From a virus (Duplodnaviria > Caudoviricetes): a stretch of 52,767 bases of DNA. Positions within the stretch are counted from its first letter, which is position 1, and each line of letters begins with the position of its first letter. The stretch is from positions 1 through 52,767 of the IMG/VR virus record IMGVR_UViG_3300009499_000013; one strand, given 5' to 3'. The notes under the pieces were generated by a model. The model was not told where the DNA came from. It saw nothing but the letters and a program-made list of their open reading frames with translations, and did no database searches. The translations under genes were made by a program, and so were the position numbers. Below, in pieces: positions 287 to 32,085 of this stretch.

Positions 287-814
287 CTATCCCTGGATGA
301 ACCAAACAAATGCATCCTCAAATCTGTTCTTTCTGATGAACCTGAGACGCGACTTTATCTCTTCGCCTGAACGAATGACGCTTGTTGATACCCTTGAGTC
401 GTTAATGCACACGACACCATCTCCTGATTCATCTGGTAAGACAAGCGTGTAATGTCCGATTATCGCATCACGCGCATCGCGCCCATAATCATCGTCTGGT
501 CTCCAATACAAAAGAACAACGGCACAGTTCTTACATCTGAGATGCCCAATTATGCTAGCATACGTTGGCAAGCGCCTCTTTTTGATGACTGCAACGCTTC
601 CAAACAGCTTTCTAACCGCTTTGTCAAAATTTGTTATCGACGTTCCCATGATTGGGGTTGTTCGACTGAGCCCAACCAGCTGGTCATGATGCTTTTTGAT
701 TGAAAAACGATACCCAAGCCACTTACCCAGGTTGATTAATGCTGTTGGGCCACATGAATAGCTCGTTCGTTGTCTTGTGTATCTGGGCACCTTCATCCGT
801 TTATTCTTTTTCAC
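287..814 (-). CDS. C39-like cysteine peptidase
   Basis: Q-x5-C motif (QRTSYSCGPTAL), then GHYTLV and IND: a papain-like C/H/D triad. Confidence 0.75.
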   Translation of the reverse strand: MKKNKRMKVPRYTRQRTSYSCGPTALINLGKWLGYRFSIKKHHDQLVGLSRTTPIMGTSITNFDKAVRKLFGSVAVIKKRRLPTYASIIGHLRCKNCAVVLLYWRPDDDYGRDARDAIIGHYTLVLPDESGDGVVCINDSRVSTSVIRSGEEIKSRLRFIRKNRFEDAFVWFIQG

Positions 815-1578
815 ATCGTCTCCGTCCTATCTTCCTCGTCTCTAAGGAATCGCTCAATAAAATCACGGTTCTGAGAAAAGATTGGTGCCTCACTAACGAC
901 CCATGTTGAACGAACGACAGAATTCACGACGTTATCGTTCAACTTTTCTTTTAAGACAACATTTCCACGCTTGAACCCAGCATCATAATCATTCCAATTG
1001 ACACCCTTTTTAAGCATGAGCATATCCATCATCTGTGTTCTGTTCATGCCATGAAGTTCTTTGTGAGAAAAATGGGCCTGTGCAGCCATGCTTATGCTAT
1101 TTCTTTCACAATCACGCTGTCTCCAAATGAAATAATTCGTGACCTCTTCACGCGGGATGTTAAAGCACCTCGCATCGAAGATGGGAAGTTGCCCTTCACG
1201 CGCTCGGTCTGGAAAGTGCATGATGAACTCACGTGCAAACGCAGACGTTGCAGATGCAGCAGCAACAGAGCATATCTTCTGCACCTGATTTGCGAACCAC
1301 GGCTCACTGTTTAGTGTTCGAAAATCTGTCAAAAGCAACGACACCTCATCAGACTGATGATAAGCAATCCTACAGTTCTGTGCTTCAGCAGCCAATCGGC
1401 GAGCAACTGCCTTCATACATACCGTCATTCTATCATCAAACGGTTTATTCATCCCTCGCGTTAGATTGCTGAAATTTTTCCCATCAACACGAACGATGAC
1501 TGGCGATCGTCTCATAAGAGTGTGTTGTGAGACAGCCTCGTACCCCTTCATCCTATTGAAAAACGCATCATCGACCAC
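811..1578 (-). CDS. thg1: tRNA(His) guanylyltransferase Thg1-like protein
   Basis: VRVDGKNFS, KPFD, YHQSDEVSLL, FDAR, YFIWRQRDCERNS, GVNWNDY motifs. Confidence 0.93.
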   Translation of the reverse strand: MVDDAFFNRMKGYEAVSQHTLMRRSPVIVRVDGKNFSNLTRGMNKPFDDRMTVCMKAVARRLAAEAQNCRIAYHQSDEVSLLLTDFRTLNSEPWFANQVQKICSVAAASATSAFAREFIMHFPDRAREGQLPIFDARCFNIPREEVTNYFIWRQRDCERNSISMAAQAHFSHKELHGMNRTQMMDMLMLKKGVNWNDYDAGFKRGNVVLKEKLNDNVVNSVVRSTWVVSEAPIFSQNRDFIERFLRDEEDRTETM

Positions 1579-11046: not shown

Positions 11047-14000
11047 CTAGCAACGACTCCACCCACACGAGCTACATGAAACACATCCTTCGCTATAGTG
11101 AAACTTTGTGCCACCACAGCTATCACACTTCTTGACGATGTCAGTCTCTGCACCATCAACGATGTAGCCCTTAAGAACACGTGATAGCACCTTAGCGAAT
11201 GAGAACATATCGCTATCACGGTCGCCCTTCTGCAATTGCTCAACCACCTGCTGTATCGGCGCTCCTTGGCGAAGAGCAAGCGATATCATCCGTGTCATCA
11301 CAGAGTGATTCGGATTATCAAACTGTTCAACGATGTCCTTGATTGTAATATCAGACCCATTGCATATGCGTAGGTCGTATGTCGCGGCCATCGTCTTTCT
11401 TTCGTTCTTGATGATTAGGCCTCTGTCATACTTCTTCGGTATCTCAACGAATCTTGATAAACCGCCGAATATCTCATATGGCTTTTCATCAATCATGCCA
11501 ACTAGTATCGTCCACGCCTCACCCTTGATGTTTGCATGATGAATCTCACATGGAAGCTCTTTCGGCCTTGTCGTCTTTGTCGTCGCTGCAACATCATTTG
11601 TTTTAGCGCTAACGAGAACACCAGCACGGCAACCATCTCGATACACAGTGAAACCCTTACAACCGGTCTTCCATGCACGCATATAGACCTGAGCGACGAC
11701 ATCACGCGTTGTGCTAGCGGGTAGGTTGCACGTCTTGCTGAGGCTATGTTCAATCCAGCGTTGAGCAACTGCTTGAACATCAACAGATGCAACCCAATCA
11801 ACGTCGTTCGACGTCGACATATGATACGGGCTGCTCTTAACATCAGTCAGGCCAGAAACATCTCGCCAATGCTTGAACCCAGGATGAAAAACATCGTACT
11901 CTTGCCACTTGTCGCCCATCGAATCTTCAAAATCAACACGGATACCGACATCATTCTGTGTGAGCTTACGACGACGCACATACTGCAACATGTATGCGGG
12001 TTCAATACCAGACGTCGTCCTAGTCATGAGAGACACAGAGCCAGCAGGAGCAGTCGTTGTGAGACAAATGTTGCGCCGGCCGTATTTCATGAATGCCGCT
12101 CGTGTCTCAGCGTCTGATGCATCTAACAGACGTGAAATGAATTGATGTTTGACCATTCTGCTGACATCACAGATGGGAAATGCACCACGCTCAACAGCTA
12201 GTTGCACAGAGCTCTTGTTGGCTGCGACAGCCAAAGAACGATACAGCTCCTCAATCATGAGGATGCTCTCCTTTGAACCGTATCTGATGTTTAGATATGC
12301 CAATGTATCACCGACACCCGTGAGGCCCAGGCCTGTTCTGCGACCCTTGACACATGCATCCCTAATCTTCTGCCATAGCGCTGTCTCGATTGCTTTGATA
12401 TCATCAGGTTCAGGGTCAGATTCAACCTTCTTGATTATCGCATCGATGTGCTCAATCTCAATGTCGATTAAGTCATCCATCAATCTCTGTGCCTTGACTG
12501 CATGCTCGTTGAACAGCTTCAAGTCGAATGTTGCATCTTCAGTGAATGCATTTCTCACATAAGAAAGAGCATTGACAACGAGCAATCTGCAACTATCATA
12601 AGGACTTAGAACAATTTCACCACAATTTTTTACACACAAACCAGACGCTTGAATGAACTTATCGTCTGGGCTTCCAGATGTAATAACATGATAGTTGTGA
12701 TTATCATCGACAGTAATATTGAACACATCCTCATAACCGAAAAATTCAACACTAACAACCTTGTGGTTATTGATAACCCTGTCTTTAAAAGCAGAAAATC
12801 GCTTGAAACGAAATTCATTAGCAACATGACAGGGTAAGCCATGTTGCTTAGCATAGTTTGTCCATATGCTAACTGTGAGTCGTCCATTTTCTGATAAGGC
12901 TTTTCTTCCGTGCTCTATCAATTCATCATTTGTGACGCCTAAATAACGCCCATTTTTCTCACCTGGATGACTAGCGAAGTTATGTTTTTGTTCAGCAGTC
13001 ATTCTGTGATATGGATTTGCGGCACCGCGCATGCAGTCAGCATGTAATGCTCTATGCTCTTCATGCGTCATTAACTGCAAATTACTGATATTATCATTGG
13101 TGCTATCAAAATCGATATGATGAATTGCGATGTTTTTGGCGTCAACATCTCCATGATAAAACTCATTGATTAATCGATATTGGCGACGATTTCGTTTAGC
13201 TCCTCCAGCCATATCAGCACCAGTATTTGCTACCTGTCGATACCCGTTTGAATTGAATGAATAAAACGGAAAAACACTCATGCCCGCCTTGAGCTTAGAC
13301 AGCTCAACATACTCTAGCGTCTTCAACATTACTTTATGGTCAGGAGTAGCTATCAATGAGCTTCCATCATCAAGAATCAACTTCCAAACCTCTTTCATTT
13401 CTCCAGTTTTTCTAGGATTTCGACCCATTTTTATTTCAACTCGACCCGTCGTAGGATTTGTAGAATAAACGGGAACATCCTGCCCAACATCAGCTAAACT
13501 TTTAATTGAAACAGCATTTCTACCGTCAGCAACAGCTATGAGTGTCTCACCGACGATGCAGGGATTCGTCGAAACAGAACCGAACCCTTCATCTGAAAAT
13601 ATGTCAGCCGGTGTTTCACGCTTGACAGTATCCCAGAACAGAACACCCGGTTCTGCTGCGCTCCATGCTGAGTCAATTATCTTATCCCATATCTGTCGTG
13701 CTTTAACGGTGCGTGTGTAAGTTGGTTCTATTGCGTCAACAGGCCATTGAAGTGTAAAATCGCTATCATCTTCAACGGCTTTCATAAATTCATCTGATAC
13801 ACGAAGAGAGATGTTTGCACCCGTGATTTTTGTTAAGTCTTTCTTGATGTCGATGAACGTCTCGACGTCAGGATGTCTGATGTCAAGAGTAAGCATCAGT
13901 GCGCCGCGGCGGCCACCCTGTGCAACCTCGCGACATGAGTTCGAAAATCTTTGCATGAAAACTGCTATGCCATCAGTTGTTCTAGACGCATTCGACGTGA

Positions 14001-14439
14001 TAAGACCAGCAGGCCTAATTGTTGAGATGTCGAAACCCACACCCCCGCGTCTCTTCATTATCTGAACCTGTTCTTGGTCAGTGTAAAGAATGCCGCCGTA
14101 TGAGTCATACGGCGACTTGATTACAAAACAATTCGACAGGCTTTGTATGCTATAGTCGTTTCCGATTCCAGACATCGGGCTACCCTGTGGAACGATGTAT
14201 CTAAAATCTCGGAGCAGTTCAAATATCTCATCCTCAGACATCGGGTTCGGATACTTCGCCTCAATCCTAGCAAACTCACGTGCCAAACGTCTGTGCATGT
14301 CATCGGGCGTCATCTCAAGTAGTTCATGATTTTCATCACGCAACGCATACTTTTTGATGAACACATCTGCGGCCATCTCATCACCGCCGAAGTACTCAAC
14401 TGATGCAGCTAATGCGTCTTTAAAGGAAACCATCGTCAT
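11047..14439 (-). CDS. nrdJ: class II (adenosylcobalamin-dependent) ribonucleotide reductase with intein
   Basis: SLSNCFV, RRGGVG, QGGRRGA, EPGVLF, NP[intein]CGE, RRTGLG, TTAPAGS, GIEP, SKTCNLP, KGFTVYRDG; C-terminal TSCPD-like domain and Zn ribbon. Confidence 0.93.
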   Translation of the reverse strand: MTMVSFKDALAASVEYFGGDEMAADVFIKKYALRDENHELLEMTPDDMHRRLAREFARIEAKYPNPMSEDEIFELLRDFRYIVPQGSPMSGIGNDYSIQSLSNCFVIKSPYDSYGGILYTDQEQVQIMKRRGGVGFDISTIRPAGLITSNASRTTDGIAVFMQRFSNSCREVAQGGRRGALMLTLDIRHPDVETFIDIKKDLTKITGANISLRVSDEFMKAVEDDSDFTLQWPVDAIEPTYTRTVKARQIWDKIIDSAWSAAEPGVLFWDTVKRETPADIFSDEGFGSVSTNPCIVGETLIAVADGRNAVSIKSLADVGQDVPVYSTNPTTGRVEIKMGRNPRKTGEMKEVWKLILDDGSSLIATPDHKVMLKTLEYVELSKLKAGMSVFPFYSFNSNGYRQVANTGADMAGGAKRNRRQYRLINEFYHGDVDAKNIAIHHIDFDSTNDNISNLQLMTHEEHRALHADCMRGAANPYHRMTAEQKHNFASHPGEKNGRYLGVTNDELIEHGRKALSENGRLTVSIWTNYAKQHGLPCHVANEFRFKRFSAFKDRVINNHKVVSVEFFGYEDVFNITVDDNHNYHVITSGSPDDKFIQASGLCVKNCGEIVLSPYDSCRLLVVNALSYVRNAFTEDATFDLKLFNEHAVKAQRLMDDLIDIEIEHIDAIIKKVESDPEPDDIKAIETALWQKIRDACVKGRRTGLGLTGVGDTLAYLNIRYGSKESILMIEELYRSLAVAANKSSVQLAVERGAFPICDVSRMVKHQFISRLLDASDAETRAAFMKYGRRNICLTTTAPAGSVSLMTRTTSGIEPAYMLQYVRRRKLTQNDVGIRVDFEDSMGDKWQEYDVFHPGFKHWRDVSGLTDVKSSPYHMSTSNDVDWVASVDVQAVAQRWIEHSLSKTCNLPASTTRDVVAQVYMRAWKTGCKGFTVYRDGCRAGVLVSAKTNDVAATTKTTRPKELPCEIHHANIKGEAWTILVGMIDEKPYEIFGGLSRFVEIPKKYDRGLIIKNERKTMAATYDLRICNGSDITIKDIVEQFDNPNHSVMTRMISLALRQGAPIQQVVEQLQKGDRDSDMFSFAKVLSRVLKGYIVDGAETDIVKKCDSCGGTKFHYSEGCVSCSSCGWSRC
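12625..13560 (-). mobile_element. 312-aa intein with HNH endonuclease in the RNR active site
   Basis: starts CIVGETLI after STNP; block B ATPDHKV; HHIDFDSTNDNISNLQL HNH motif; DVFNITVDDNHNY; ends VKN|CGEI. Confidence 0.92.
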
Positions 14440-15695
14440 TCATCCTCACCAGAGCTTGAACCATTGGCTACCTTGTTGATGCTTCTTAAAGACACCATCC
14501 TGTCTGCTGAGACCTGCTCCCATTTGTCTTTAAGGAGCTGTTTCATTCCTGTGTCTGCACTCATTTGGAAATCCTCTAAATCAACGTTCGCGTCAAGCAC
14601 TTCAATGATTGAGCGTGATGTGTCTATCTTACCAGGAAAAATGATGCCGTCCTTACCGAGTCTGCTTTTTGGAATGAAAATGTTGCAGAGACCCTTCGCC
14701 TTCTGTATCGGTTTCCTAGATAATGAGATGATGAAATCACAAATCATCGCCTTACCATAGCTTTCTGATATCTTGTCTAGGCCGACGACATCAGTGTCAG
14801 AACCATCGCGATTCACCTGACTCGCTGTCCAGATTGGAACATTGAGCTCCATTGCAAGTGTGCGCAGCTCTTCATAAACCAGCTTAAGCTCATGTCGAAG
14901 AGAATCAAACTGCCTAGATGACCTCATGATGTCAGCGTAGTCAATGATGATTACGTCAGGCCTAAATGACTTTGTGATTGCGAGCTTTTCGATGTGCGCC
15001 TTCAGCATCATGATTGTAGCCGTGCTGGTTGGATACTCCTTAATGATTAAACGACCCCAGTTAGACTTGTTCGATTCATAATGCGTTCTGATGAACTCTT
15101 TTTCATCAGGCACATCAGTCGCACTCACATTTGAGAGGTTTGAGTCATATCGGATACCGACCTTCTTCTCAGAAAGCTCGAACGTATAATGAAGAACATT
15201 TCGACCAGACTTCACAGCATTCGCTCCCAACTGAACGAGAAAATGTGAATTATGAGAAAGAATGTCATTCGTGTAAAAGCAATGAGTATCAGCAACTTGT
15301 AAATCAAATAGGGACTCATTTTCAATAACTGTCTCATTCGATTCAACAACAACTGCCGTATAGCCACCCCTAACAACTATTAAATCACCTTTAATAACAT
15401 TTTGTGCATACTTCCATCCGACAGTTGTTAAAACATTATGTTTAAATGCACACTCAAGCGACATTGCACCAAGCATTTCATGCATAACAGTAAGTCGCCA
15501 TATTGGAAGATGCTCTGTTTTTCTGAAACCCTCAACTTGCTTAAAACAATCATTTTTCGTAGAAGCATCATACGATAAAATTTGTATATCGAAATTTGCT
15601 GACACTTCAATGTTTTCACCAGAAATCTTAAGCTCATCAAAGAGCGCACTCAAACTAACATCACGTTCAACAATATTACGGCTGATTGATAGCAT
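14436..15695 (-). CDS. replicative helicase C-terminal half, fused to C-intein
   Basis: likely ATG at 15695 with GAGG RBS; after ILSHN come SHFLVQ, HYTFELSE, IIDYADIM, WTASQVNR, KSRLG (DnaB/gp41 motifs). Confidence 0.9.
   Translation of the reverse strand: MLSISRNIVERDVSLSALFDELKISGENIEVSANFDIQILSYDASTKNDCFKQVEGFRKTEHLPIWRLTVMHEMLGAMSLECAFKHNVLTTVGWKYAQNVIKGDLIVVRGGYTAVVVESNETVIENESLFDLQVADTHCFYTNDILSHNSHFLVQLGANAVKSGRNVLHYTFELSEKKVGIRYDSNLSNVSATDVPDEKEFIRTHYESNKSNWGRLIIKEYPTSTATIMMLKAHIEKLAITKSFRPDVIIIDYADIMRSSRQFDSLRHELKLVYEELRTLAMELNVPIWTASQVNRDGSDTDVVGLDKISESYGKAMICDFIISLSRKPIQKAKGLCNIFIPKSRLGKDGIIFPGKIDTSRSIIEVLDANVDLEDFQMSADTGMKQLLKDKWEQVSADRMVSLRSINKVANGSSSGEDE
15249..15695 (-). mobile_element. 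split intein C-fragment (149 aa)
   Basis: block B-like CAFKHNVLTTVGWK, block F LFDLQVADTHCFYTN, terminal SHN|S. Confidence 0.9.
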
Positions 15696-16824
15696 TTTTA
15701 ACCTCAAAAATAACTTCTGACCGACGATAACACCAATCTTTACCACGCACAACGATAACGTTATAGCCAGCATCAGTTAATGCTTTTAGTTTTAAGTTGT
15801 CATGTTCCCACATCTGTTTAGCGGTTAATTTTGTGCGTGGATGAACCCATGTAGGAGAAAATGCGTCTGCATGTGGATGCCAAAATTCTCCCATATATTC
15901 GACGATAACACGTTTAACGGGAAAAACAATATCACAGTTATATGTTAAAACTCTTATATTTGTTTCAATAAGCTCATCACAAAATTGTTCTTTTAAAACG
16001 TTTTGAAGCTCAATTTCACCAGATGAACGATTATAAAATGCTTTAGGCATATTTGCAGCAATCTGTTCTTTAACGTCAGCTGTGTGATGTTTCCCAAACA
16101 TCGGATGCTTTTCATTCGTGCGTCCGTAACATGGCGTTAGTTTAACTGCTTCATCAATAGAAATACCAGCTCTTGTTGCAATTGATACTAATGACATCGG
16201 ATTTTTATCACCCAACATCGCTTCAGAGCGTGCATTAAGAGTTTCAGGTTTATTGTTTTGACAAAGACTAGCTTTAATTTGAAACTCTTTAACACACTCT
16301 TTTGCTTCGTCAAATGAAAACCCTTTTCTTACCCAATGTTTTATTTCTGACGGAAACGAGCGCCAATCAAGAAAGGCAGCTCGTACAGTCGGGTCTTTAA
16401 ATTTTTCTTTAGCATTTTTTGAAGCTTTTTCTCTATCTTCTGTTGCTGTTCTTTGAATAATGCAGTTAGGATATTTTAGCTTATACTCTTTGCCTGTAAT
16501 GTTATGTCTTCTATTAATGTGAGACACAATAGATGAAGCAGTCTCAAATCCACAAATTTTACATACGATTTTATCAGTCCAACAGCGATTTTCTTTAGCT
16601 TCTTTTGCAGCAATGTTTTTTCTATAAACAGAATTATAGTCTCGTCTGTCATCACTCATCTTTTGCTTAACAGCATCAGAAAATCGAAATACAACTTTCG
16701 CTGGATATAAAAGTTTATACTCAGCAATCGTTATGTTGTGTCGCTTAATGATATGTGTTATTAAATTGCTGTCTGCTTCAAATCCACAGATAGCACATGA
16801 TAACGTATCAGACCAGCTCATCAT
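15676..16824 (-). CDS. free-standing homing endonuclease (C2H2 fingers, NUMOD3-like motif, Vsr/EDxHD-like nuclease)
   Basis: CAICGF...THIIKRH and CKICGF...SHINRRH; HPMFGKHHT; SSGEIEL...CDIV...IVEYMGEFWH...DNLK; AT-rich. Confidence 0.85.
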   Translation of the reverse strand: MMSWSDTLSCAICGFEADSNLITHIIKRHNITIAEYKLLYPAKVVFRFSDAVKQKMSDDRRDYNSVYRKNIAAKEAKENRCWTDKIVCKICGFETASSIVSHINRRHNITGKEYKLKYPNCIIQRTATEDREKASKNAKEKFKDPTVRAAFLDWRSFPSEIKHWVRKGFSFDEAKECVKEFQIKASLCQNNKPETLNARSEAMLGDKNPMSLVSIATRAGISIDEAVKLTPCYGRTNEKHPMFGKHHTADVKEQIAANMPKAFYNRSSGEIELQNVLKEQFCDELIETNIRVLTYNCDIVFPVKRVIVEYMGEFWHPHADAFSPTWVHPRTKLTAKQMWEHDNLKLKALTDAGYNVIVVRGKDWCYRRSEVIFEVKNAINQP

Positions 16825-17608
16825 CTTCTCGAATATCACTCACAATGATATTTCCTCGTTTTGTCATAACAAACTGCCAAGGATAATATGCTTTTCCATT
16901 AATCAAAACTTGTTCATGTTTAATATGAACAATTGAATTACCACGAGCGCATTTGCCGACGCCAGTGCCGGCCAAGATGCAACCCAGTTCTCCACCACCC
17001 AAGCCACCATTCATCACATCACGTGTGTCAAGATGTGCTAGACCGGTTGCGACAGTCGTTCTGTTCTCTTTAACGAAGCGTGCCTCTGCGTCCTCAAAAA
17101 AATCGTGGCCAGCAGTGTTGGGTGTGCCGACAGTGATTGCTGACTTGATTCGACCGACAATCTCTTCATAACGCTCATTCTTCGTCAAATCGACTGCTTC
17201 TTCAAGAGCATGCTTAAGCGCTTGGTTCTTACAAAAATTTAAAGACCTATCCTTCACCCACGGGAGGTCATTGATGTTTGGATTGCTCTTAAGCCCACCA
17301 AGGAATGAAACGACCTGAGCACACATCACCTCATCGTTTCCCTCACTGAGCTGGTCGCGTGCCATCGTGGCAAGAAGCGTGATTGAAGGAAACGTTTTAT
17401 ACGTCTGATAATGTCTCTGATAGATGTCAAACAGGTATCGAAGGTGTGCAACCTCGAAATACTCAAGCTTAAGAACCTCCATCATCTGCTGCGACCAGGC
17501 ATGGTCTGACAAGAGCGCCTGAATCACTCGTTCTTGGAAAGGACGACCGAACGACTTAAAAGAAACATCACCTTCATCAGCTGACATCAATGACCTCGAA
17601 AAAAACAA
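16808..17608 (-). CDS. replicative helicase N-terminal half, fused to N-intein
   Basis: TGLAHLD...GGLGGGELGCILAGTGVGK (Walker A, cut before the Ser) then CARGNSIV...; start may be the ATG at 17587. Confidence 0.9.
   Translation of the reverse strand: MFFSRSLMSADEGDVSFKSFGRPFQERVIQALLSDHAWSQQMMEVLKLEYFEVAHLRYLFDIYQRHYQTYKTFPSITLLATMARDQLSEGNDEVMCAQVVSFLGGLKSNPNINDLPWVKDRSLNFCKNQALKHALEEAVDLTKNERYEEIVGRIKSAITVGTPNTAGHDFFEDAEARFVKENRTTVATGLAHLDTRDVMNGGLGGGELGCILAGTGVGKCARGNSIVHIKHEQVLINGKAYYPWQFVMTKRGNIIVSDIREDDELV
16811..16951 (-). mobile_element. split intein N-fragment (47 aa)
   Basis: GK|CARGNSIVHIK block A at the classic P-loop insertion site; stop codon follows. Confidence 0.85.
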
Positions 17609-17617
17609 AAAACGCGT

Positions 17618-18559
17618 TTATATCTTAGAGAATGCGAAAAAGAAATCCAAAGCATCAAACGTGCCCAATCCTTCATCGATGAGCACTCTCATCAACTGAA
17701 TCTGGTTTCTAACAGGTTTAAATGATTGGATTATTGAATCGATTCTCATGATTTGAACAGCCGCAAGATTGGCTGTGTCAAGATACATAACCCTGAAGTT
17801 TCGAGAAAGCAACTCTTCGTTTTGAGCGATTGAGCTGAATATCTTTGGGCCATCTTCACACTTCTCTTTCGCCATCTTAACAAGCTCAGGAACAGAGATT
17901 GGTTCATCACCCGTAAGGTCGAAGCGCTTTGCAAGGCCTTTAAAGCCAACGCCCTTAACACCCGGGACGTTATCACTAACATCACCGCACACAGCCTTCG
18001 CAAGCACAAAGTTCGATGGTGAAATGTTAAACTGTGCCTTCACTTCATCTGGTCCGATGAATTTCTTCGATGCCCATGAATACACCATCGTGTTTCTATC
18101 CAAGAGTTGATAAAAATCCCTATCAGATGATGCGATGATTTTCTTCTCATCCCTGAATGTGTTGCGGCTGAGGTAACCGATGACGTCATCAGCCTCACAG
18201 TTCTCAACAAACAGCTGACAGACGGGCACATGCTTAAGCACCTCTGTCAAGAACAGCTGTTGATGGGCACGGTTCTCTTTTGAATCAGGAATATCGTCTT
18301 CGTAGTATCGATTGAGCTTTGGAGGTTTTCTACCCTCCTTGTATCCTGGAAAGATAGCCCTACGACGAGGAGAACCACCACTCTCCCAAATGATGTATAC
18401 TGCTCGTGGATTCGTAAGCGTCGTAAGATAAGCTAACGAGCCGAGAAACCCAACGATACCACCCGCCTGATGCCCATGTGATGACATCGCAGGATGTCTA
18501 ATGTAATGACGTGCAAAGCAGTTAAGAGCATCGATGAAAAGAATCGGTCGAGCATCCAT
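17618..18559 (-). CDS. 5'-3' exonuclease / flap endonuclease (T4 RNase H or PolI N-terminal type)
   Basis: FIDALN, YKEGR, EADDVIG, SSDRDFYQL, GDVSDNVPGVKGVG. Confidence 0.92.
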   Translation of the reverse strand: MDARPILFIDALNCFARHYIRHPAMSSHGHQAGGIVGFLGSLAYLTTLTNPRAVYIIWESGGSPRRRAIFPGYKEGRKPPKLNRYYEDDIPDSKENRAHQQLFLTEVLKHVPVCQLFVENCEADDVIGYLSRNTFRDEKKIIASSDRDFYQLLDRNTMVYSWASKKFIGPDEVKAQFNISPSNFVLAKAVCGDVSDNVPGVKGVGFKGLAKRFDLTGDEPISVPELVKMAKEKCEDGPKIFSSIAQNEELLSRNFRVMYLDTANLAAVQIMRIDSIIQSFKPVRNQIQLMRVLIDEGLGTFDALDFFFAFSKI

Positions 18560-18598
18560 GTATCCATTATCATCAATCTACGTGAATGTGTTCAAACA

Positions 18599-18865
18599 TC
18601 ATTCATTGACGGCGGGCCTGATGTAGCATCCGGAGCCATCATTTTTACAGATAAGGTTTATGAACATTGGAATATATCCAACCTTTGTGCTAACAGTGCA
18701 ATGTGATATCGGCCCAGGGTAGTCATTGACACAACTGCGCCGGCTAGCATCGATGCCCATCTCGCTCAGCCAAATGTCGACAGACTTTTCAGGAATAGAC
18801 TTATATTTCATATCACATCCGAAAAGTAAAACAAATGCAGCTAGATGAATAATCTTAGAAGTCAT
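18599..18865 (-). CDS. small putative lipoprotein
   Basis: signal peptide with lipobox-like LLFGC; Cys-rich. Confidence 0.6.
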   Translation of the reverse strand: MTSKIIHLAAFVLLFGCDMKYKSIPEKSVDIWLSEMGIDASRRSCVNDYPGPISHCTVSTKVGYIPMFINLICKNDGSGCYIRPAVNE

Positions 18866-19014
18866 GATAACACCCTATCTGTGTCTGTGAATGTTTGAAG
18901 TCCATGAGCCGCAGCTATATCATTTGAGCGTTTGATATCATCAACAAGCCTCTTCTTATAGTCAAATAGATGCTTTTTACGCTCATCAGCGGTCATCCGT
19001 GATAAAATTTTATA
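18862..19014 (-). pseudogene. orphaned 3' part of the gene starting at 20017, separated by inversion
   Basis: YKILSRMTADERKK...DRVLS* is in frame with TAT at 20302-20304 once 19012-20304 is reversed; ATGA overlap with 18865. Confidence 0.65.
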
Positions 19015-19223
19015 ATCTAGATAAGAGACTCTACGACGACTTTATAAAGAACCTCGGGCACAGCCTCTGGTATGACGTTAGTACTAACATCGGCAACAAT
19101 CTTGCGATTAGTCTTAGGGACAGCTTCTGGGTGCATCGAGATCAGAGCATCATGGATGATATTAGTGACAATCTCCGAAACGTCAGAAACATTCATGATT
19201 CTGAAGTGACCAACAATGCGTGA
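18999..19223 (+). CDS. small paralog-array protein (original start lost at inversion junction)
   Basis: YNLDKRLYDDF...GHSLW...RDSFW; ends NNA* overlapping the next ATG. Confidence 0.6.
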   Translation: MIKFYNLDKRLYDDFIKNLGHSLWYDVSTNIGNNLAISLRDSFWVHRDQSIMDDISDNLRNVRNIHDSEVTNNA

Positions 19224-19421
19224 CTTGAACGAGAAACTCGAGAACAGCTCTGGGACAGTCTTGAGCACAGCCTCATGGACAGCCTCAGGGACAGCCTTGG
19301 GAATAGCCTCGGATTCAGTCTTGGGTGCAACCTCAGTGACAGCCTCAAGAACAGTCTTGGAAACAACCTTACACAAACCACACAGAACGAACAGAGCGTT
19401 GAGGAGACCAACGATGCGTGA
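19216..19421 (+). pseudogene. paralog-array unit with 1-nt deletion near 19248
   Basis: the alternative frame gives WDSLEHSLMDSLRDSLGNSL...QNEQSVEETNDA*, matching the next unit. Confidence 0.7.
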
Positions 19422-19580
19422 CTTGAACAAGAAATTCGGGAACTGTCTCAGGGACAACCTCTGGGTCAGCATCGCAAACAACCTCGGAAACAGTCTCAGG
19501 GACAGCCTCTGGAACAACAACCTCTGGGACAACAGCTTCGGGCACAGCCTCGGGCACAGCCTCGAGCACAGCCTCGAGCA
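19240..19580 (+). repeat. degenerate 12-bp tandem repeat (ACAGCCTCNNGN)
   Basis: many cagcctc/cagtct copies with 12-nt period. Confidence 0.8.
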
Positions 19581-19626
19581 AACCGCACAGAACGAACAGA
19601 GCGTCAAAGAGACGAACGATGCGTGA
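19414..19626 (+). CDS. paralog-array protein with xxSL tetrapeptide repeats
   Basis: MRDLNKKF...GNSLRDSLW...GHSLGHSLEHSLEQ; GAGGAG RBS. Confidence 0.75.
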   Translation: MRDLNKKFGNCLRDNLWVSIANNLGNSLRDSLWNNNLWDNSFGHSLGHSLEHSLEQTAQNEQSVKETNDA

Positions 19627-19828
19627 CGTGAACAAGAAATTTGAGAAAGTTTTTAGAGATGAAGTTTCACATAACATTTGGCCCGATGTTAAAAACACAC
19701 TCATTAATGCGTTTTTTATTGAGCTTACTTTTGGTCGCAGCGAACACAGTAATCTTGGCATCTGTGATGGTCTCATTGAATGTTTAAGCGACAATCATAA
19801 AAAAGATGATGGAATGTCAAATGCATGA
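19619..19828 (+). CDS. paralog-array protein
   Basis: MRDVNKKF start; ATGCGTGA overlap. Confidence 0.7.
   Translation: MRDVNKKFEKVFRDEVSHNIWPDVKNTLINAFFIELTFGRSEHSNLGICDGLIECLSDNHKKDDGMSNA
19770..19826 (+). repeat. 57-bp repeat, inverted copy at 20303-20359
   Basis: 56/57 identical; both copies encode LIECLSDNHKKDDGMSNA. Confidence 0.95.
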
Positions 19829-20024
19829 CGTGAATGATAAATTTGAGATTGAATTAATTGAAGCCACTAGTAGTTTTGTAAATGTGAATTTGTTCGAACG
19901 CAACAGTTTTAAACACATCTACATCTATAGTAATTTTGAACATTTTTATAAACTTGGTTTAGACATAGAAATCAACAAAAAAATTAACAAGATAGCGAAA
20001 AGAGATGAGAACACAGATGAGTGA
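19821..20024 (+). CDS. paralog-array protein
   Basis: MHDVNDKFEIEL resembles MRDKNDEFEISL; ATGCATGA overlap. Confidence 0.7.
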   Translation: MHDVNDKFEIELIEATSSFVNVNLFERNSFKHIYIYSNFEHFYKLGLDIEINKKINKIAKRDENTDE

Positions 20025-20334
20025 TTTTGAAATTGTTCAAGCAATCGACAGTCTCACGACAGAAATAAAAGCATTGCGAGATGCAATCGAGGCATCTGAA
20101 AAGGAAAGACTAGCGAAGCAAATGAAAAGTAAAGAGCGTTCTGGTCGATATAGTTCTGCAGTTGATGCCGGCTATCTTGGCGAGCTTTTGATTGAGATGA
20201 TGATATCAACTTTTTTGCGTGAAAAAGAAATTGATGTTTTTTTGTCTAAACCATTCTATGTCAGATGGTTTGATGATAGCGACTACAAATATTACTCAAG
20301 CTATGCATTTGACATTCCATCATCTTTTTTATGA
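20017..20334 (+). CDS. hypothetical protein, truncated/chimeric at inversion junction 20304
   Basis: MSDFEIVQ...; last 10 aa read from the antisense strand of the repeat. Confidence 0.65.
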   Translation: MSDFEIVQAIDSLTTEIKALRDAIEASEKERLAKQMKSKERSGRYSSAVDAGYLGELLIEMMISTFLREKEIDVFLSKPFYVRWFDDSDYKYYSSYAFDIPSSFL

Positions 20335-20508
20335 TTGTCACTTAAACATTCAATGAGACAATTACAAAGAATATCGCTAGTGATGTCGCTGAGGTAGTAC
20401 CTAATCTTGAATATAAGACTGCTGTTGAGGTTGTAATTACTGATGACTTCATCAAGTCCATTACCGATTGATGAAGTTGTTATGTAGTCTCTCATTCAAG
20501 TTACGCAT
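20301..20508 (-). pseudogene. paralog-array unit with frameshift
   Basis: family start MRNLNERLHNNFINR* stops early; the body GNGLDEV...MSNA* is in another frame. Confidence 0.6.
20303..20359 (-). repeat. 57-bp repeat, second copy
   Basis: reverse complement of 19770-19826 with one mismatch. Confidence 0.95.
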
Positions 20509-20716
20509 CGTTTGACCATTCGTTGCTTCGAGTACGAATATTTGTTTGTACATCTGACACAAGGTTACTCCAAAGACTGCTTCGAAGCATAAAATTTATG
20601 TTTGATTGATTGACGTCATGACCGATATCATCGATATTACCGTGCATCTTTTCACGCATGCAACGCCACAAATCATGATGAAGGTCGTCAATGAATCTTT
20701 GATACATGTCAATCAT
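20501..20716 (-). CDS. paralog-array protein
   Basis: MIDMYQRFIDDL...RSSLWSNL...SNDA*; 8-nt overlaps at both ends. Confidence 0.7.
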   Translation of the reverse strand: MIDMYQRFIDDLHHDLWRCMREKMHGNIDDIGHDVNQSNINFMLRSSLWSNLVSDVQTNIRTRSNEWSNDA

Positions 20717-20882
20717 CAGACTTCTCATCACTCTTGGAGTTCATTAGCTCAAGACTATGAACAAGCTCGTGTTGAAAATTATGGACAAAACGTAAGACAT
20801 CCCTATATCCAAGTAAATTTATAAAATCAGCTCTAAAGTTTGGAATCAAGCTAATTTCAAATTCATCATTCTTGTCACGCAT
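20709..20882 (-). CDS. paralog-array protein
   Basis: MRDKNDEFEISL; ATGCGTGA overlap with the HTH gene. Confidence 0.7.
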   Translation of the reverse strand: MRDKNDEFEISLIPNFRADFINLLGYRDVLRFVHNFQHELVHSLELMNSKSDEKSDD

Positions 20883-21195
20883 CACTGAAAATCTCAGAGC
20901 TAGACACAGCATCATCCTGTGGGATGGGTTGAAACTCAATATCACTCAATTGAGATTCGGCCGCCCAGGCAAGAGAAGCAACCTCACGCAACGTAATGTC
21001 GTCGTCACCATCAAGAATGTCGTTAATTCTATTCAATGAAATTCCCGTTCGAAGAGAAACGTCTGCACGGTTGATGCCCTTTTCCTGATAGAGCCCATAC
21101 AGCTCCTCCTTGACTGCCAGTATCAGCTTCTCTTCAAGAAGAAGTCTCTTCTGCGTTGGTGTCTTAAAGAGTTCGTTAAAGAGTTCGTCTTTCAT
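20875..21195 (-). CDS. XRE-family helix-turn-helix regulator
   Basis: EKGINRADVSLRTGISLNRINDILDGDDDITLREVA; GGAG RBS before ATG 21195. Confidence 0.8.
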   Translation of the reverse strand: MKDELFNELFKTPTQKRLLLEEKLILAVKEELYGLYQEKGINRADVSLRTGISLNRINDILDGDDDITLREVASLAWAAESQLSDIEFQPIPQDDAVSSSEIFSDA

Positions 21196-21196
21196 A

Positions 21197-21742
21197 TCAT
21201 CTCCCAGTTGAGCCGAAGCCCTTGTTCCCGCGTTTCGTTTGTTTGACCTCATCGACAAGCTCAAACTCGATGCTCGGAGCGATGAGACTGACGTAGAAAA
21301 CCATCTGTGCGATGCGGTCTCCAACGTTGATTGTGTAATCGTTACCTGACATATTGGCCAGTGTGATTCGCAGCTCTCCACGGTATGTGGGGTCAATCAC
21401 GCCACCAACTGGAAAGATACCCTTGATACCCAATGACGAACGCCCCTCAATCTTTGGCCACACCGTCAGGTTCTCAATGAACATGACATCGCCAGCGACG
21501 TACTGTGAGCCCTGCCCAGGATGGTCGCACTCATTTTCTCGCGGAAGAAACACTGTGTCTTCATGAGAATGAAGCCTGATATGGGGTTGATAATGAGCGA
21601 TGTATAGACCCGTATCAACGGGCAAAATTCTACCCGTGGGTATCATCACTTCCTCTGTTGAGTATAGGTCGAAGCCGATATCATCCTTAGATTGTGAAGG
21701 AAGACGAGCCTTTGAAGATGAAAGCTTCAGCTGAATCTGCAT
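21197..21742 (-). CDS. dut: trimeric dUTPase
   Basis: GFDLYS, GRSSLG, GVIDPTYRGE, GDRIAQ, RGNKGFGSTG. Confidence 0.95.
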   Translation of the reverse strand: MQIQLKLSSSKARLPSQSKDDIGFDLYSTEEVMIPTGRILPVDTGLYIAHYQPHIRLHSHEDTVFLPRENECDHPGQGSQYVAGDVMFIENLTVWPKIEGRSSLGIKGIFPVGGVIDPTYRGELRITLANMSGNDYTINVGDRIAQMVFYVSLIAPSIEFELVDEVKQTKRGNKGFGSTGR

Positions 21743-21774
21743 AAGACATGGTATCACACGTCATATTACAGATA

Positions 21775-22311
21775 TCAATGCTGAACATTCGATGTAATGG
21801 GACCGTCACACATGATTGTCAGCGACACACGACATGGCTTGTCGTCGCTGTAGTCAAGCGTCGTCATAAAGACATCCTTGACCCAAGCATCGTGCATGTG
21901 CCACACTCGAATGTCATGGCCCATTGCATCTAGCAACCTGATTGTGAACATGAACCTGCGACCCTGCGCGAGTGTGCTACCCTGACACAGGTTATCGACA
22001 AGCGTGCTCATATCATGACAATCTGCAAGAGTGATATAAAGCGGCTCATACGTTCTATTACCACTCTTGTCTATATGAAAGCACGGTTGTGTCACTTTTA
22101 TGACAAGATACGGTGCAATTTCAGGAATTTCGACGATGAAGCGATTAGAGGTAATCGACGCTACATGTTCATCAACTGACTGTTCTGTTGATTGTTCGAC
22201 GACATCTGGGCGAGCAACAGCACGCATTCGCTTCATATCCCTGAAGCCCTCTAAAGCTAGAACAAAAAAAAGCGCCAATAAAAATCCCATAATACCCGAC
22301 ACAATCATCAT
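21775..22311 (-). CDS. tail-tube (gp19-like) paralog with N-terminal transmembrane helix
   Basis: aligns by eye with 47157-47645 (NRFIV/FRWIL, YEPLYITLAD/WQPMAIELYD, LLDAMG/MLDPVG, WVKDV/WPKDI, LDYS/LSYD); hydrophobic residues 3-20. Confidence 0.7.
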   Translation of the reverse strand: MMIVSGIMGFLLALFFVLALEGFRDMKRMRAVARPDVVEQSTEQSVDEHVASITSNRFIVEIPEIAPYLVIKVTQPCFHIDKSGNRTYEPLYITLADCHDMSTLVDNLCQGSTLAQGRRFMFTIRLLDAMGHDIRVWHMHDAWVKDVFMTTLDYSDDKPCRVSLTIMCDGPITSNVQH

Positions 22312-23537
22312 GACTCTGGGTCTCCCATATCAGCATCCAAACCATCAGCGATGCTTTGCATCTCAACCAATGATTCTGCATCGACGTCGATGTCTGCAGA
22401 ATCATTCATCTTTCTCATCATCCTCAGCTCAATTAGCTTATCAAGATACGGCTTAAATTTCTCATCATCGAGCACTTCATCGAATGCATTCTTATTGAAC
22501 TTCTTCTCATGTATGAGCTTTCCCGTTGCATCCTTGACGCTGAATGTCTTCCACGCACCTGTGCCCTCGACCTCAACATCAAACTCTTTTCCATTGAGCT
22601 CGATTCGACCAGGGCCGAATGGCCTGAGAAAATCAAACAGCTCTTCATGCTCTTTGAGCCCGACGCCGAAATGGATTTGAAAATCACACTTACGAAATGG
22701 CGGAGACACCTTGTTCTTAATCGTCTTCGCATTAACGTTGATGCCTATCACTTCTCCTGCCTTATTCTCAATATGAGACCCAGCCCCGAGCTTTATTCGA
22801 ACAGATGCATGGAATGGAATCGCCTTACCTCCTGGAGGAACCTGTGGGTCTCCATACATCTGCCCGATGCTCGTCCGCGTCTGGTTCAGGGCAAGGAACG
22901 TTATGCGATTTGCACCCACGATGCTAGTGATTTTTCTGAATCCCTTTGAAAGAGCGCGTGCCTGAAGACCGATGCTATCCTTATCATAATCCCCTTCGAG
23001 CTCAGCCTTTGGAGATGTGGCAGCAACGCTATCCCAGATGATTGTCACTGGAACGTCTTTCTTAAGAGCACGTGTCTTAAGAATGATGCCCTCTGCAATC
23101 TCAAACACGCGTTCAGTGCAGACTGCATCACAATAAATAAGATTCTTACCGATATTGACACCAAGAAGCTGGAGGTTCTCTACACTTGTGCTTGACTCAG
23201 AATCAATCAATACAACAATTCCACCCATTTTTTGAGTGCTTTTAGCAATTTGTGCAGCGATATGACTTTTTCCAATACTTGGAGGACCGAAAATCTCAAT
23301 CAATCGACCCTCTGGAAGACCACCTCCGGGCCTGTTGGCGATGATATAATCAAGTTGTCTAGACCCAGTTGAAATCCAACGATGAACCTTCGTCGGTGCA
23401 TCATCCTTGAGGAGATTGTACGCAATCTTTTCACCACCGCCATGTTCAGAGTTAAGACTCTTGATGAGACTGTCGGTAAATCCTTTCAGCCCATCTTCAA
23501 TAGGAGTATCAACGATAACACTGTCTTTCTTTTTCAT
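22308..23537 (-). CDS. recA: RecA/UvsX-like recombinase
   Basis: ISTGS, GGLPEGRLIEIFGPPSIGKS, IWDSVAA, GLQAR, NQTR, GGKAIPFHASVR, KNKVSPPF. Confidence 0.95.
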   Translation of the reverse strand: MKKKDSVIVDTPIEDGLKGFTDSLIKSLNSEHGGGEKIAYNLLKDDAPTKVHRWISTGSRQLDYIIANRPGGGLPEGRLIEIFGPPSIGKSHIAAQIAKSTQKMGGIVVLIDSESSTSVENLQLLGVNIGKNLIYCDAVCTERVFEIAEGIILKTRALKKDVPVTIIWDSVAATSPKAELEGDYDKDSIGLQARALSKGFRKITSIVGANRITFLALNQTRTSIGQMYGDPQVPPGGKAIPFHASVRIKLGAGSHIENKAGEVIGINVNAKTIKNKVSPPFRKCDFQIHFGVGLKEHEELFDFLRPFGPGRIELNGKEFDVEVEGTGAWKTFSVKDATGKLIHEKKFNKNAFDEVLDDEKFKPYLDKLIELRMMRKMNDSADIDVDAESLVEMQSIADGLDADMGDPES

Positions 23538-25873: not shown

Positions 25874-26890
25874 TTAGATTTCAGTCATTTTGTCGCTAAA
25901 AAGCCTAACGACCAGCTGTTTTTCATTACCACTCTTCACTACTTTTTTCCACTCTTTGTCTGTTAATCTTACCAACTTTTTTCCCATTTGTTTAAACCAC
26001 ATGCATTGTTTAGCATCACGTAGCTTCGTTCCCAAAATTACTGCGTCTCTTCTATTATTTGACACATGAAGTTCATCAACTGTCTTGTCATAACCATGCC
26101 AGTAAACGCCGTCGAACTGAACGAATGTATCAATCAACGGCACATAAAAATCAATTGCCCAACCATTGATGACGACCTGTCGTTCAACGTTTTCAAAGAT
26201 AGATGAGAGCACATCAAAAAATGAATCTTCTGTCTTAGAGCGACCGAAACTGCCATTCTTTTTCATTGTCGCGTGTCGTTTTTCAACTGCGGCGCTCCAA
26301 TCAATCTGATTTTTTATGAATGAAGACTGCATCGGCCAGTCAACGCCATAAACGCTCTGACACGTCGCTCTTGCACGAATATTATATTCAGCGCTTTGTG
26401 CATAATGCGACACACCGAAACGAGTGATGCATGTTTCTCTAATCTTTGATTTGATGACGTCAGACTGAAATGGATGCTCAACACCGTAGCGACTGATTGA
26501 TGTTGCTTTTACTTTGTCTTTATGTTCTGGTAGTTGAGATGCATTTGATAAACCTGTCGCTTCTTTGAAGCGTAATTGCATTAGTTCGTGGCTTAATAAT
26601 CCAAATTTTTCTTTTTTTGTCTTATTCTGTTTAGCAATAACATCAGCACACTGAGTGGGATAATCGACACCTCGGCGCTTAATGTTTGTTTGTCTTATCT
26701 GTTCAGATAGGACTTTTTTCTTTTGCTGCCCTAAACGATAACAGCTTCTACTACAAAAGTGTATATTTTTATTCCGTGCTTTAAATGAACTTTCGAAAAA
26801 AACTCCACATTCATCACATCGACATACACACACTCTAGAGATATTTGCTCTTGATGAACGCTTAAGCTGTTTAATGAAGACTAGCGCCAC
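25874..26890 (-). CDS. homing endonuclease-like protein (Zn module, YGV repeats, Vsr-like nuclease)
   Basis: CDECG...FCSRSC; repeats RGVDYPTQ, YGVEHPFQ, FGVSHYAQ, YGVDWPMQ; SKTE...IDFY...QFDGVYWHG...RDAKQ. Confidence 0.8.
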   Translation of the reverse strand: MALVFIKQLKRSSRANISRVCVCRCDECGVFFESSFKARNKNIHFCSRSCYRLGQQKKKVLSEQIRQTNIKRRGVDYPTQCADVIAKQNKTKKEKFGLLSHELMQLRFKEATGLSNASQLPEHKDKVKATSISRYGVEHPFQSDVIKSKIRETCITRFGVSHYAQSAEYNIRARATCQSVYGVDWPMQSSFIKNQIDWSAAVEKRHATMKKNGSFGRSKTEDSFFDVLSSIFENVERQVVINGWAIDFYVPLIDTFVQFDGVYWHGYDKTVDELHVSNNRRDAVILGTKLRDAKQCMWFKQMGKKLVRLTDKEWKKVVKSGNEKQLVVRLFSDKMTEI

Positions 26891-31485: not shown

Positions 31486-32085
31486 ATGAAGACAAAAGAG
31501 CTCATTCAACGCTTAAACGAAGCTGACCCGGGTGGTGATGCTGAGTGCTGCATCAACAATCATGACATCTTATACGTCGAATCGATGCCCACATGGTATG
31601 ACGGTAAGTTGGAAATCCTAGATAGAGATAAAAGCATCGACGGATATAACGTCATCGGTGCACGTGTCGTTGCTAGCGGTCAAAAAATTAAAATACATTC
31701 ACACTCAATAGAGGACATGATAGGTGTATCGCATAAGCTTCCCGTCGACCTATCTGATATCAAGAACACAACAATCATCAAAGCATATGAAGCGATGATT
31801 GAGCAGTTCAGAAAAGACTCAATCACAGTCAAACATGATGCCGCCCTGTGGTCATTTAGATTGTTCATCGAAAAAAAGGTAAAAGAAGCCGGTGTGAGGT
31901 TGAATGAATCAATGATTGAAGGCGCTGCTCGAACGTTCTTCGACAATAATCTGTCTGATGATGATGCGATGCCAGCAGACATATGTGAAAAGCAACTAAG
32001 CTGGACTGACAGACGTCATATGCAATGGGATAGAGAGCTCTCTGTTTCAGTGACAGATAGCTCAATTGAAATCAAGCGTGCATGA
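31486..32085 (+). CDS. hypothetical protein
   Basis: 199-aa ORF, MKTKELIQRLNEADP start, own promoter. Confidence 0.75.
   Translation: MKTKELIQRLNEADPGGDAECCINNHDILYVESMPTWYDGKLEILDRDKSIDGYNVIGARVVASGQKIKIHSHSIEDMIGVSHKLPVDLSDIKNTTIIKAYEAMIEQFRKDSITVKHDAALWSFRLFIEKKVKEAGVRLNESMIEGAARTFFDNNLSDDDAMPADICEKQLSWTDRRHMQWDRELSVSVTDSSIEIKRA

Follow-up and report, generated by a model that had tools for sequence, protein, structure and literature searches.

A segment of 1293 bp, at positions 19012-20304, lies inverted with respect to the ancestral all-minus gene order in IMG/VR record IMGVR_UViG_3300009499_000013, a viral assembly of 52,767 bases considered at its full length (hereafter, the window). 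The inversion is defined by the sequence, by the contigs of sequencing runs and by a scripted flip. It splits a gene of 145 amino acids (aa) and deprives a second small gene, B1, of its start codon. The event was probably a recent, one-off illegitimate recombination, i.e., a conservative and reciprocal inversion of 1293 bp in a single lineage at a 3-bp inverted match. The un-inverted form is ancestral, as judged from the homologs of the split gene. This is a well-documented but ordinary structural variant, and it points to no new mechanism.

Nearly all genes of the window are on the minus strand, according to its list of open reading frames (ORFs). The small minus-strand ORFs G, F2, F1 and E follow one another from 20945 down to 20301, between the genes of a dUTPase (21197-21757) and of a 5'-3' exonuclease/RNase H (17618-18559), both assigned by Pfam. 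Then comes a plus-strand block (19014-20334) made up of B1 (no ATG), B2/B3, B4, C and an ORF starting with MSDFEIVQ. Beyond the block, the minus strand resumes with an ORF of 44 aa (18862-18996), followed by a gene of 88 aa. An informal look at the ORF list gave no other multi-gene plus-strand block and one further plausible plus-strand gene (31486-32085, 199 aa, no Pfam match), which is also the sole other sizeable plus-strand ORF that does not shadow a minus-strand gene.

A sequence-only reading had claimed that a 1.29-kb inversion at an ATA/TAT match could be reversed to repair two genes. Reverse-complementing 19012-20304 by script gives one unbroken, colinear minus-strand chain of small genes, with both predicted joins: (i) gene E ends with ...MSNA, its stop overlapping the ATG that opens MHNLDKRL... 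(71 aa from that ATG); (ii) MSDFEIVQ...YYSSY runs in frame into KILSRMTADERKK...DRVLS, the stop of which shares an ATGA with the start codon of the 88-aa gene (18865).

Both joins are found in public assemblies. The 105-aa ORF of the window, used as a query, retrieved P0001, a protein of 145 aa that is letter-for-letter the predicted fusion (100% identity), plus two relatives of 147 aa with about 85% identity and the same continuation. The family-type start MHNLDKRL predicted for B1 is present in P0008 (71 aa, 2 contigs, the longest of 50,599 nt) and in P0009 (76 aa, a single Logan contig of 944 nt). The flip reproduces P0001 and P0008 exactly, which confirms the two novel reciprocal junctions. 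Cluster look-ups gave the following contig counts for the full-length forms (145, 147 and 151 aa): 3 for P0001, 2 for P0005, 2 for P0002, 8 for P0003, 1 for P0010 and 2 for P0025. The truncated products were found in 2 contigs for P0007 (105 aa), 2 for P0024 (44 aa) and 1 for P0004 (74 aa), the longest being always of 52,767 nt; most likely, these contigs are the same one, that of the window, filed in two sources. The same proteins also occur on contigs as long as 182 kb.

When 1.84 billion representatives were searched exhaustively with phmmer, 5 proteins reached E <= 0.001. The homologs of the reconstructed 145-aa protein (85, 85, 55 and 43% identity) continue across the breakpoint. The alignments of P0011 (55%) and P0012 (43%) start at about residue 2-11, end at 137-140 and span the break between residues 96 and 97. 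Since homologs down to 43% identity keep the gene whole, the intact 145-aa gene is ancestral and the window has the derived state. A search of IMG/VR with the 105-aa ORF gave two matches of 15 residues only, which were judged spurious. No relatives of P0001 were found in JGI metagenome contigs or GTDB genome contigs, a result that says nothing about their absence.

The region 18500-20800 was found at half or more of the sampled words in 12 sequencing runs, and at least in part in 20 rows from 16 studies. The Logan contigs of four runs (X1 to X4; X2, X3 and X4 come from three studies) were compared with window positions 18300-21000. These contigs are built from 31-letter words and show the presence, not the absence, of a form. 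The three runs other than X1 (3/3) all have contigs with the un-inverted joint, in which 19011 meets 20304 and 19014 meets 20301 on opposite strands with 3 shared letters. Single contigs of X3 (record 17, 56,286 nt) and X4 (record 24, 9,033 nt) run from 19797 to 20301, then from 19014 to 18300, and a contig of 134 nt in X2 (record 14) has the same joint. Moreover, X2, X3 and X4 have contigs starting with 28 unplaced letters followed by 19012 onward, as expected of the second un-inverted junction. No inverted joint was found in the contigs of these three runs.

The situation is the opposite in X1. Its record 1 (6,625 nt) follows the order of the window from 18300 to 19614 without a single difference and bridges the inverted left junction; its record 7 (536 nt) covers 19797-20332 and passes the right junction. 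The opposite-strand, un-inverted joint is present in 0 contigs of X1. Each run thus has one orientation in its contigs, which drop rare variants: inverted joints only in X1, un-inverted only in X2, X3 and X4. One lineage or sample thus has the inversion, and the contigs of three others lack it. Compared with the other strains, each contig piece shows only about one differing letter in the flipped segment; the inversion is therefore recent. The window also has private differences from X2, X3 and X4, i.e., position 18831 and a 5-nt gap behind 20466, and it is thus a lineage of its own.

The left breakpoint is marked by the microhomology ATA (19012-19014), within the AT-rich palindrome ATAAAATTTTAT (19002-19013), and the right one by TAT (20302-20304), which abuts the palindrome ATGCAT (20303-20308). 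In the run contigs, the 3 letters fit on either side of the junction. The exchange is conservative and reciprocal: the 3-nt match persists at each junction, without loss or gain of a single base. One break is exactly at the E/B1 gene boundary, the other inside codons 96-97 of the 145-aa gene. At least 3 letters of inverted microhomology are found in 5.7% of 200,000 random breakpoint pairs of the region, so that a match of 3 nt has no significance by itself. The interval 18000-22000 contains 13 inverted-repeat pairs, none of which is a longer repeat joining 19012 with 20304.

The sequence-only reading had missed an inverted repeat of 57 nt (19770-19826 vs. 20303-20359, 56/57 identical), the inner end of which (the palindrome ATGCAT) touches the right breakpoint. 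Arm R2 (19770-19826, plus strand) corresponds to the 3' end of B4 plus ATGCAT, and arm R1 (20303-20359, minus strand) to the 3' end of gene E plus ATGCAT. They are inverted in the window and direct in the ancestral order, where they lie at two gene boundaries, each copy comprising the 3' end of E or B4 and the two opening codons of the gene that follows. This repeat was first suspected as the primary driver of the inversion and was then rejected: its copies being direct in the ancestor, it cannot have caused the inversion. Having become an inverted pair, it now surrounds a piece of 476 bp (C plus the 5' gene fragment) that the RecA-like recombinase of the phage could flip.

The same repeat could have served a multi-step rearrangement, i.e., the excision and re-insertion of a cassette or repeated flips between R1 and R2 instead of one simple inversion. 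The location of the right breakpoint at the inner end of the repeat, the RecA/UvsX-like protein encoded by the phage (22308-23537, Pfam) and the shuffling via short conserved boundary motifs described for T4-type variable regions in passages of PMC2839356 and PMC4122927 are compatible with such a route. It is nevertheless very unlikely: (i) an exchange between direct copies should give, by our reasoning, a deletion or a duplication and not an inversion; (ii) one inversion with two breaks explains both junctions exactly, while the routes through the repeat need three breaks or more; (iii) the left breakpoint has no similarity to the 57-nt repeat.

Several points weigh against a single natural inversion and must be kept in mind. 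First, contigs drop rare variants, so that X1 could hold a minority of the other orientation. Second, X1 may be the source sample of the window itself; their agreement is then independent of the assembler, not of the library. X1 is a subsurface metagenome with a depth of only about 9-11, and neither the type nor a description of its library is on record. Third, its record 7 extends just 28 letters beyond the right junction, below the 31-letter rule. Fourth, words of 31 letters cannot tell the window-like from the flipped orientation of the 476-bp piece between the repeat arms, the orientation considered here being the one given in the assembly of the window. Finally, the right breakpoint lies within 0-3 nt of a gene boundary and also of the repeat's end, roughly estimated as a coincidence of a few percent if breaks were random, and this may point to a non-random mechanism. 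As the copies were direct in the ancestor, the coincidence reduces to one break on a gene boundary, for which survival bias may be an alternative account; such a bias is possible because a break at this boundary leaves the protein of gene E unchanged (its TAA stop becomes TAG).

The low depth of X1 and its unrecorded library also count in favour of an artefact, i.e., an inversion made in library preparation (e.g., whole-genome amplification, low biomass) or in assembly, the true phage order being un-inverted. The inverted form is on record only for the window-sized contig and for X1, possibly its source. The chimeras of multiple displacement amplification (MDA) described in part of PMC1855051 mostly join sequences in inverted orientation, starting from 2-21 complementary bases, with intervening deletions. 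The window shares with them an inverted join at a short complementary stretch, and its 3-nt match is within their range. However, these chimeras are single junctions with deletions in a minority of reads, as far as that part of PMC1855051 goes, whereas both reciprocal junctions are present here at the consensus level with nothing lost or gained. An artefact is rather unlikely for other reasons also: two assemblers, that of the window and that of Logan for X1, agree on the inverted left junction (contig of 6,625 nt, 0 differences), though possibly from one library; X1 has no contig carrying the un-inverted joint; by our reasoning, the un-inverted assembly graph holds direct repeats only and cannot produce an inversion; the same contig has other private differences, at 18831 and in the 5-nt gap.

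The sequence-only reading had left the choice between a recent inversion and a switch. The inversion is borne out by the un-inverted form in 3/3 other runs and by the homologs with an intact 145-aa gene; the switch is not. Invertase switches are well known, e.g., Gin and the G segment of Mu, Cin of P1 and Hin of Salmonella. These systems have inverted sites of tens of bp, an adjacent gene of a serine invertase, two functional gene ends and both orientations in one population. The window resembles them in that a segment of about 1 kb is inverted, changing what can be expressed. Unlike them, it shows no inverted sites of tens of bp, no adjacent invertase among the ORFs of at least 110 aa and no alternative gene ends. 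As to mixed orientations, the contigs of each run, in which rare variants are dropped, show one orientation.

A programmed, reversible switch would require an enzyme from outside the window or from the host, flipping the segment at two AT-rich palindromic sites and toggling five to six genes. Some features agree with this idea: the exchange is perfectly conservative and reciprocal, as in site-specific recombination; both breakpoints are in or beside short palindromes, ATAAAATTTTAT and ATGCAT; one breakpoint is exactly on a gene boundary. Against it, inverted identity at the ends is limited to 3 nt, with no extended inverted repeat linking 19012 to 20304, each of the four runs shows a single orientation in its contigs, and the flipped state splits a conserved gene and gives no alternative product. 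Besides, an unrelated frameshift in the same strain (gene E, see below) speaks for decay more than for regulation. By Pfam, none of the 38 window ORFs of at least 110 aa (0/38) matched a serine or tyrosine recombinase, nor a resolvase, invertase or integrase family, the window being part of a genome of which another part may encode a recombinase. It must be noted that the earlier statement that no recombinase is present in the window is right for these two families only, since a recombinase of the RecA/UvsX type is encoded at 22308-23537. A programmed switch is thus extremely unlikely. Little more credit can be given to the idea of a reversible enzyme-driven inversion at ATGCAT and ATAAAATTTTAT in populations each nearly clonal for one state, or to its weaker version, in which the inversion would have newly made the 476-bp piece a true invertible element, flipped by the RecA-like recombinase.

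The reading retained is a single exchange with two breaks between the ATA and TAT sites, which would have inverted 1293 bp, split the 145-aa gene and removed the start of B1. Breakage and rejoining, or template switching at microhomology, are candidate routes; an exchange in the manner of a type II topoisomerase would likewise yield so conservative a product. The inversion would have been tolerated because the array of small genes is dispensable, a view that agrees with the second lesion of this strain, in gene E, where 5 missing nt shift the frame. The occurrence of two independent lesions in a single strain is easier to reconcile with relaxed selection on the array than with a regulated switch.

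Spontaneous illegitimate inversions at very short inverted repeats or microhomology are known in bacteria and phages. The case described here is similar to them: two breakpoints, a reciprocal product, few shared bases and no dedicated enzyme or site; the genes at the breakpoints are disrupted and the un-rearranged allele persists in relatives. It differs from selection experiments on illegitimate inversions in that both states come from natural populations and one break is exactly on a gene boundary. A first literature search on microhomology inversions in phages brought up nothing specific. Another comparison can be made with the hyperplastic regions of T4-type phages, in which, according to passages of PMC2839356 and PMC4122927, shuffling takes place between promoter/stem-loop cassettes (PeSLs), with insertions, deletions, replacements and mini-circles. 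Similarly, the locus has small non-essential genes between conserved replication genes, which differ among close relatives and have short sequences conserved at their boundaries. In contrast with the PeSLs of these passages, its boundary motif is a coding stop/start overlap (RATGCRTRA), no promoter-terminator cassette stood out above chance in a scan (see below), and the event is an inversion.

The 5' part of the broken gene (residues 1-96) is at 20017-20304 on the plus strand; its ORF continues to 20334 and adds 9 foreign residues, hence the 105-aa product (P0007). The orphaned 3' part (residues 97-145) is at 18862-19011 on the minus strand, where an internal ATG at 18996 opens the 44-aa ORF (P0024); it still overlaps the 88-aa gene by ATGA. 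P0001 is modelled by AlphaFold2 as an all-helical protein (predicted local distance difference test, pLDDT, 86), and in this model the break strips the 5' piece of the best-predicted helix (residues 104-131). The model has no match at E <= 0.001 in PDB and BFVD by Foldseek. The 145-aa protein has no match in Pfam or PHROG and no usable hit in ESM Atlas, and its best E in a sequence-profile search of PDB is 0.3. Two alleles of the middle part of the gene (20202-20304) coexist in run X2 (records 14 and 15, depths 60 and 22). The minor one has a 6-nt insertion behind 20276 and 7 changed letters, and is of the 147-aa type, as P0002 and P0003.

As for B1 (19014-19223, plus strand), its ATG-CAT start is lost at the breakpoint, and gene callers use a GTG at 18999 to give an ORF of 74 aa (P0004). 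B1 to B4, C and the 5' gene piece are now antisense to all their neighbours. A loss of expression of these five to six flipped genes is plausible from their orientation, and in that sense it was reasonable to suppose that half of the array is turned off.

The inversion provides a clean, natural before-and-after pair in an uncultured phage, in which the breakpoints are known to the base and the ancestral allele and the damage are known. It can be regarded as a natural knock-out: in the sampled habitat, the phage may be able to do without the 145-aa gene and half of the array, at least temporarily. It offers a strain marker for a phage found in many kinds of metagenome, and a warning for annotation, as the products of 105, 74 and 44 aa on the window contig are fragments. 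The rearrangement was predicted from raw sequence alone and then confirmed by public data. If a reversible flip were true, five to six accessory genes of a widespread phage would be switched as a block.

The array itself consists of about ten small genes between the dUTPase and RNase H genes, lineage-specific, variable and without match to a known family. Its members have 57-76 aa and a mutual identity of only 15-29%; their N-termini follow the pattern M-R/H-D/N-L/V-N and their C-termini the pattern S/T-N-D/N-A. In the ancestor, all of them lay on the minus strand, most being chained by 8-nt stop/start overlaps. The use of such an overlap across the array had been claimed from the sequence, and holds in a modified form: the motif RATGCRTRA has 10 matches in the window, 6 of which are within 19215-20883 at array junctions, whereas the ATGCAT form is found at two junctions only, i.e., B4|C, which matches the motif, and E|B1, which the inversion has changed to ...TAG and which does not match. 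The closest relative in IMG/VR (L003, RNase H 67% identical) has no such array: its dUTPase and RNase H genes are separated by a single, unrelated ORF of 73 aa. The array is thus accessory.

On the plus strand, B1 is followed by B2 and B3 (19216-19626), which contain repeats with a period of 12 nt (xSLx tetrapeptides), B4 (19619-19828, 69 aa), the last 57 nt of which are repeat arm R2, and C (19821-20024, 67 aa, MHDVNDKF...). On the minus strand are E (20301-20508), F1 (20501-20728, 75 aa) and F2 (20709-20882, 57 aa from its family-type MRD start, P0020). The head of the array is the upstream ORF G (20875-21252, minus strand), whose stop overlaps the F2 start (GATGCGTGA). Its match to a helix-turn-helix family is weak (phrog_1373, transcriptional regulator, E = 1e-5), and that to Pfam HTH_26 does not reach the cut-off. 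Downstream of the array, the 88-aa gene (18599-18865, minus strand) is intact and has no family match. Pfam and PHROGs searches with 12 array proteins gave nothing over curated cut-offs except the weak match of ORF G.

Gene E bears the second lesion of the strain, a frameshifting 5-nt deletion behind 20466. With the 5 letters present in X2, X3 and X4, it encodes a family member of 70 aa; in the window (20461-20508), the frame that opens with the family-type ATG at 20508 meets a stop after 15 codons, and the remainder of the gene can be read only from the ATG at 20495. B2 also changes frame, after MRDLNEKLENS (about 19245-19250): the family-like LWDSLEHSL... is in another frame, and the ORF runs into B3 (136 aa). 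A contig of X2 shows no gap at that place, so this frameshift is common to other strains; the relatives P0028 and P0029 have the intact pattern. The copy number of the xSLx repeat varies between strains (P0027 is 8 residues shorter). In all four runs, parts of 19250-19650 are covered only by numerous short contigs with loose ends, and skip or go-back joints are frequent, a fragmentation read no further than variation of repeat number. The 12-nt-period repeats probably also give rise, as a side effect, to the antisense ORFs 19017-19607 and 19369-19794.

A family profile of the array proteins gave 11 proteins at E <= 0.001 among 34 candidates. They are mostly those of the window or near-identical to them, with few true relatives such as P0028 and P0029. 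The boundary motif GATGCGTGA gave single matches in only 3 of 28 related loci, thus the array family is considered as not present in these 28 relatives. A scan of 18400-21900 for promoters and terminators gave 10 promoter-like sites (8.0 expected from shuffles) and 2 terminator-like sites (2.7 expected), none of them at array boundaries.

The window belongs to an uncultured myovirus, whose replication module comprises gp32, the RecA/UvsX-like protein, the DnaB-type helicase, RNase H, dUTPase, ribonucleotide reductase and PolA. A Pfam scan of the 38 ORFs of at least 110 aa left 20 without any match. Besides dUTPase, RecA/UvsX-like and 5'-3' exonuclease/RNase H proteins, the families found include gp32, a DnaB-type helicase, a class I ribonucleotide reductase with an intein and an HNH domain, ThyX, a PolA fragment and a Thg1-like enzyme; the structural domains are those of the T4 baseplate, the gp19 tail tube and the sheath. 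The phage has PolA, and its kinship to T4 is only distant. The RecA of the closest isolated phage has 37% identity only, and no GenBank phage has DNA near-identical to 17600-21800.

Near-identical sequence to 18500-20800 is present in subsurface, wastewater, groundwater, activated sludge, sludge, aquatic, marine and soil runs (16 studies, 2017-2025). The phage may be unusually widespread, its host may be so, or it may be a common contaminant.

Other genes of the window are worth mentioning. The ORF at 811-1578 (minus strand) encodes a homolog of Thg1-like tRNA-His guanylyltransferase (Pfam E = 5e-32), an enzyme that is unusual in a phage. Also on the minus strand are the ribonucleotide reductase with its HNH-bearing intein (11047-14439) and a DnaB-type helicase region (14436-17608), the latter seemingly interrupted by an ORF of 387 aa (15676-16839) that has motifs of the NUMOD3 and zinc-finger types. 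The ORF at 25874-26890 is similar and has DUF7487. These are probably homing endonucleases.

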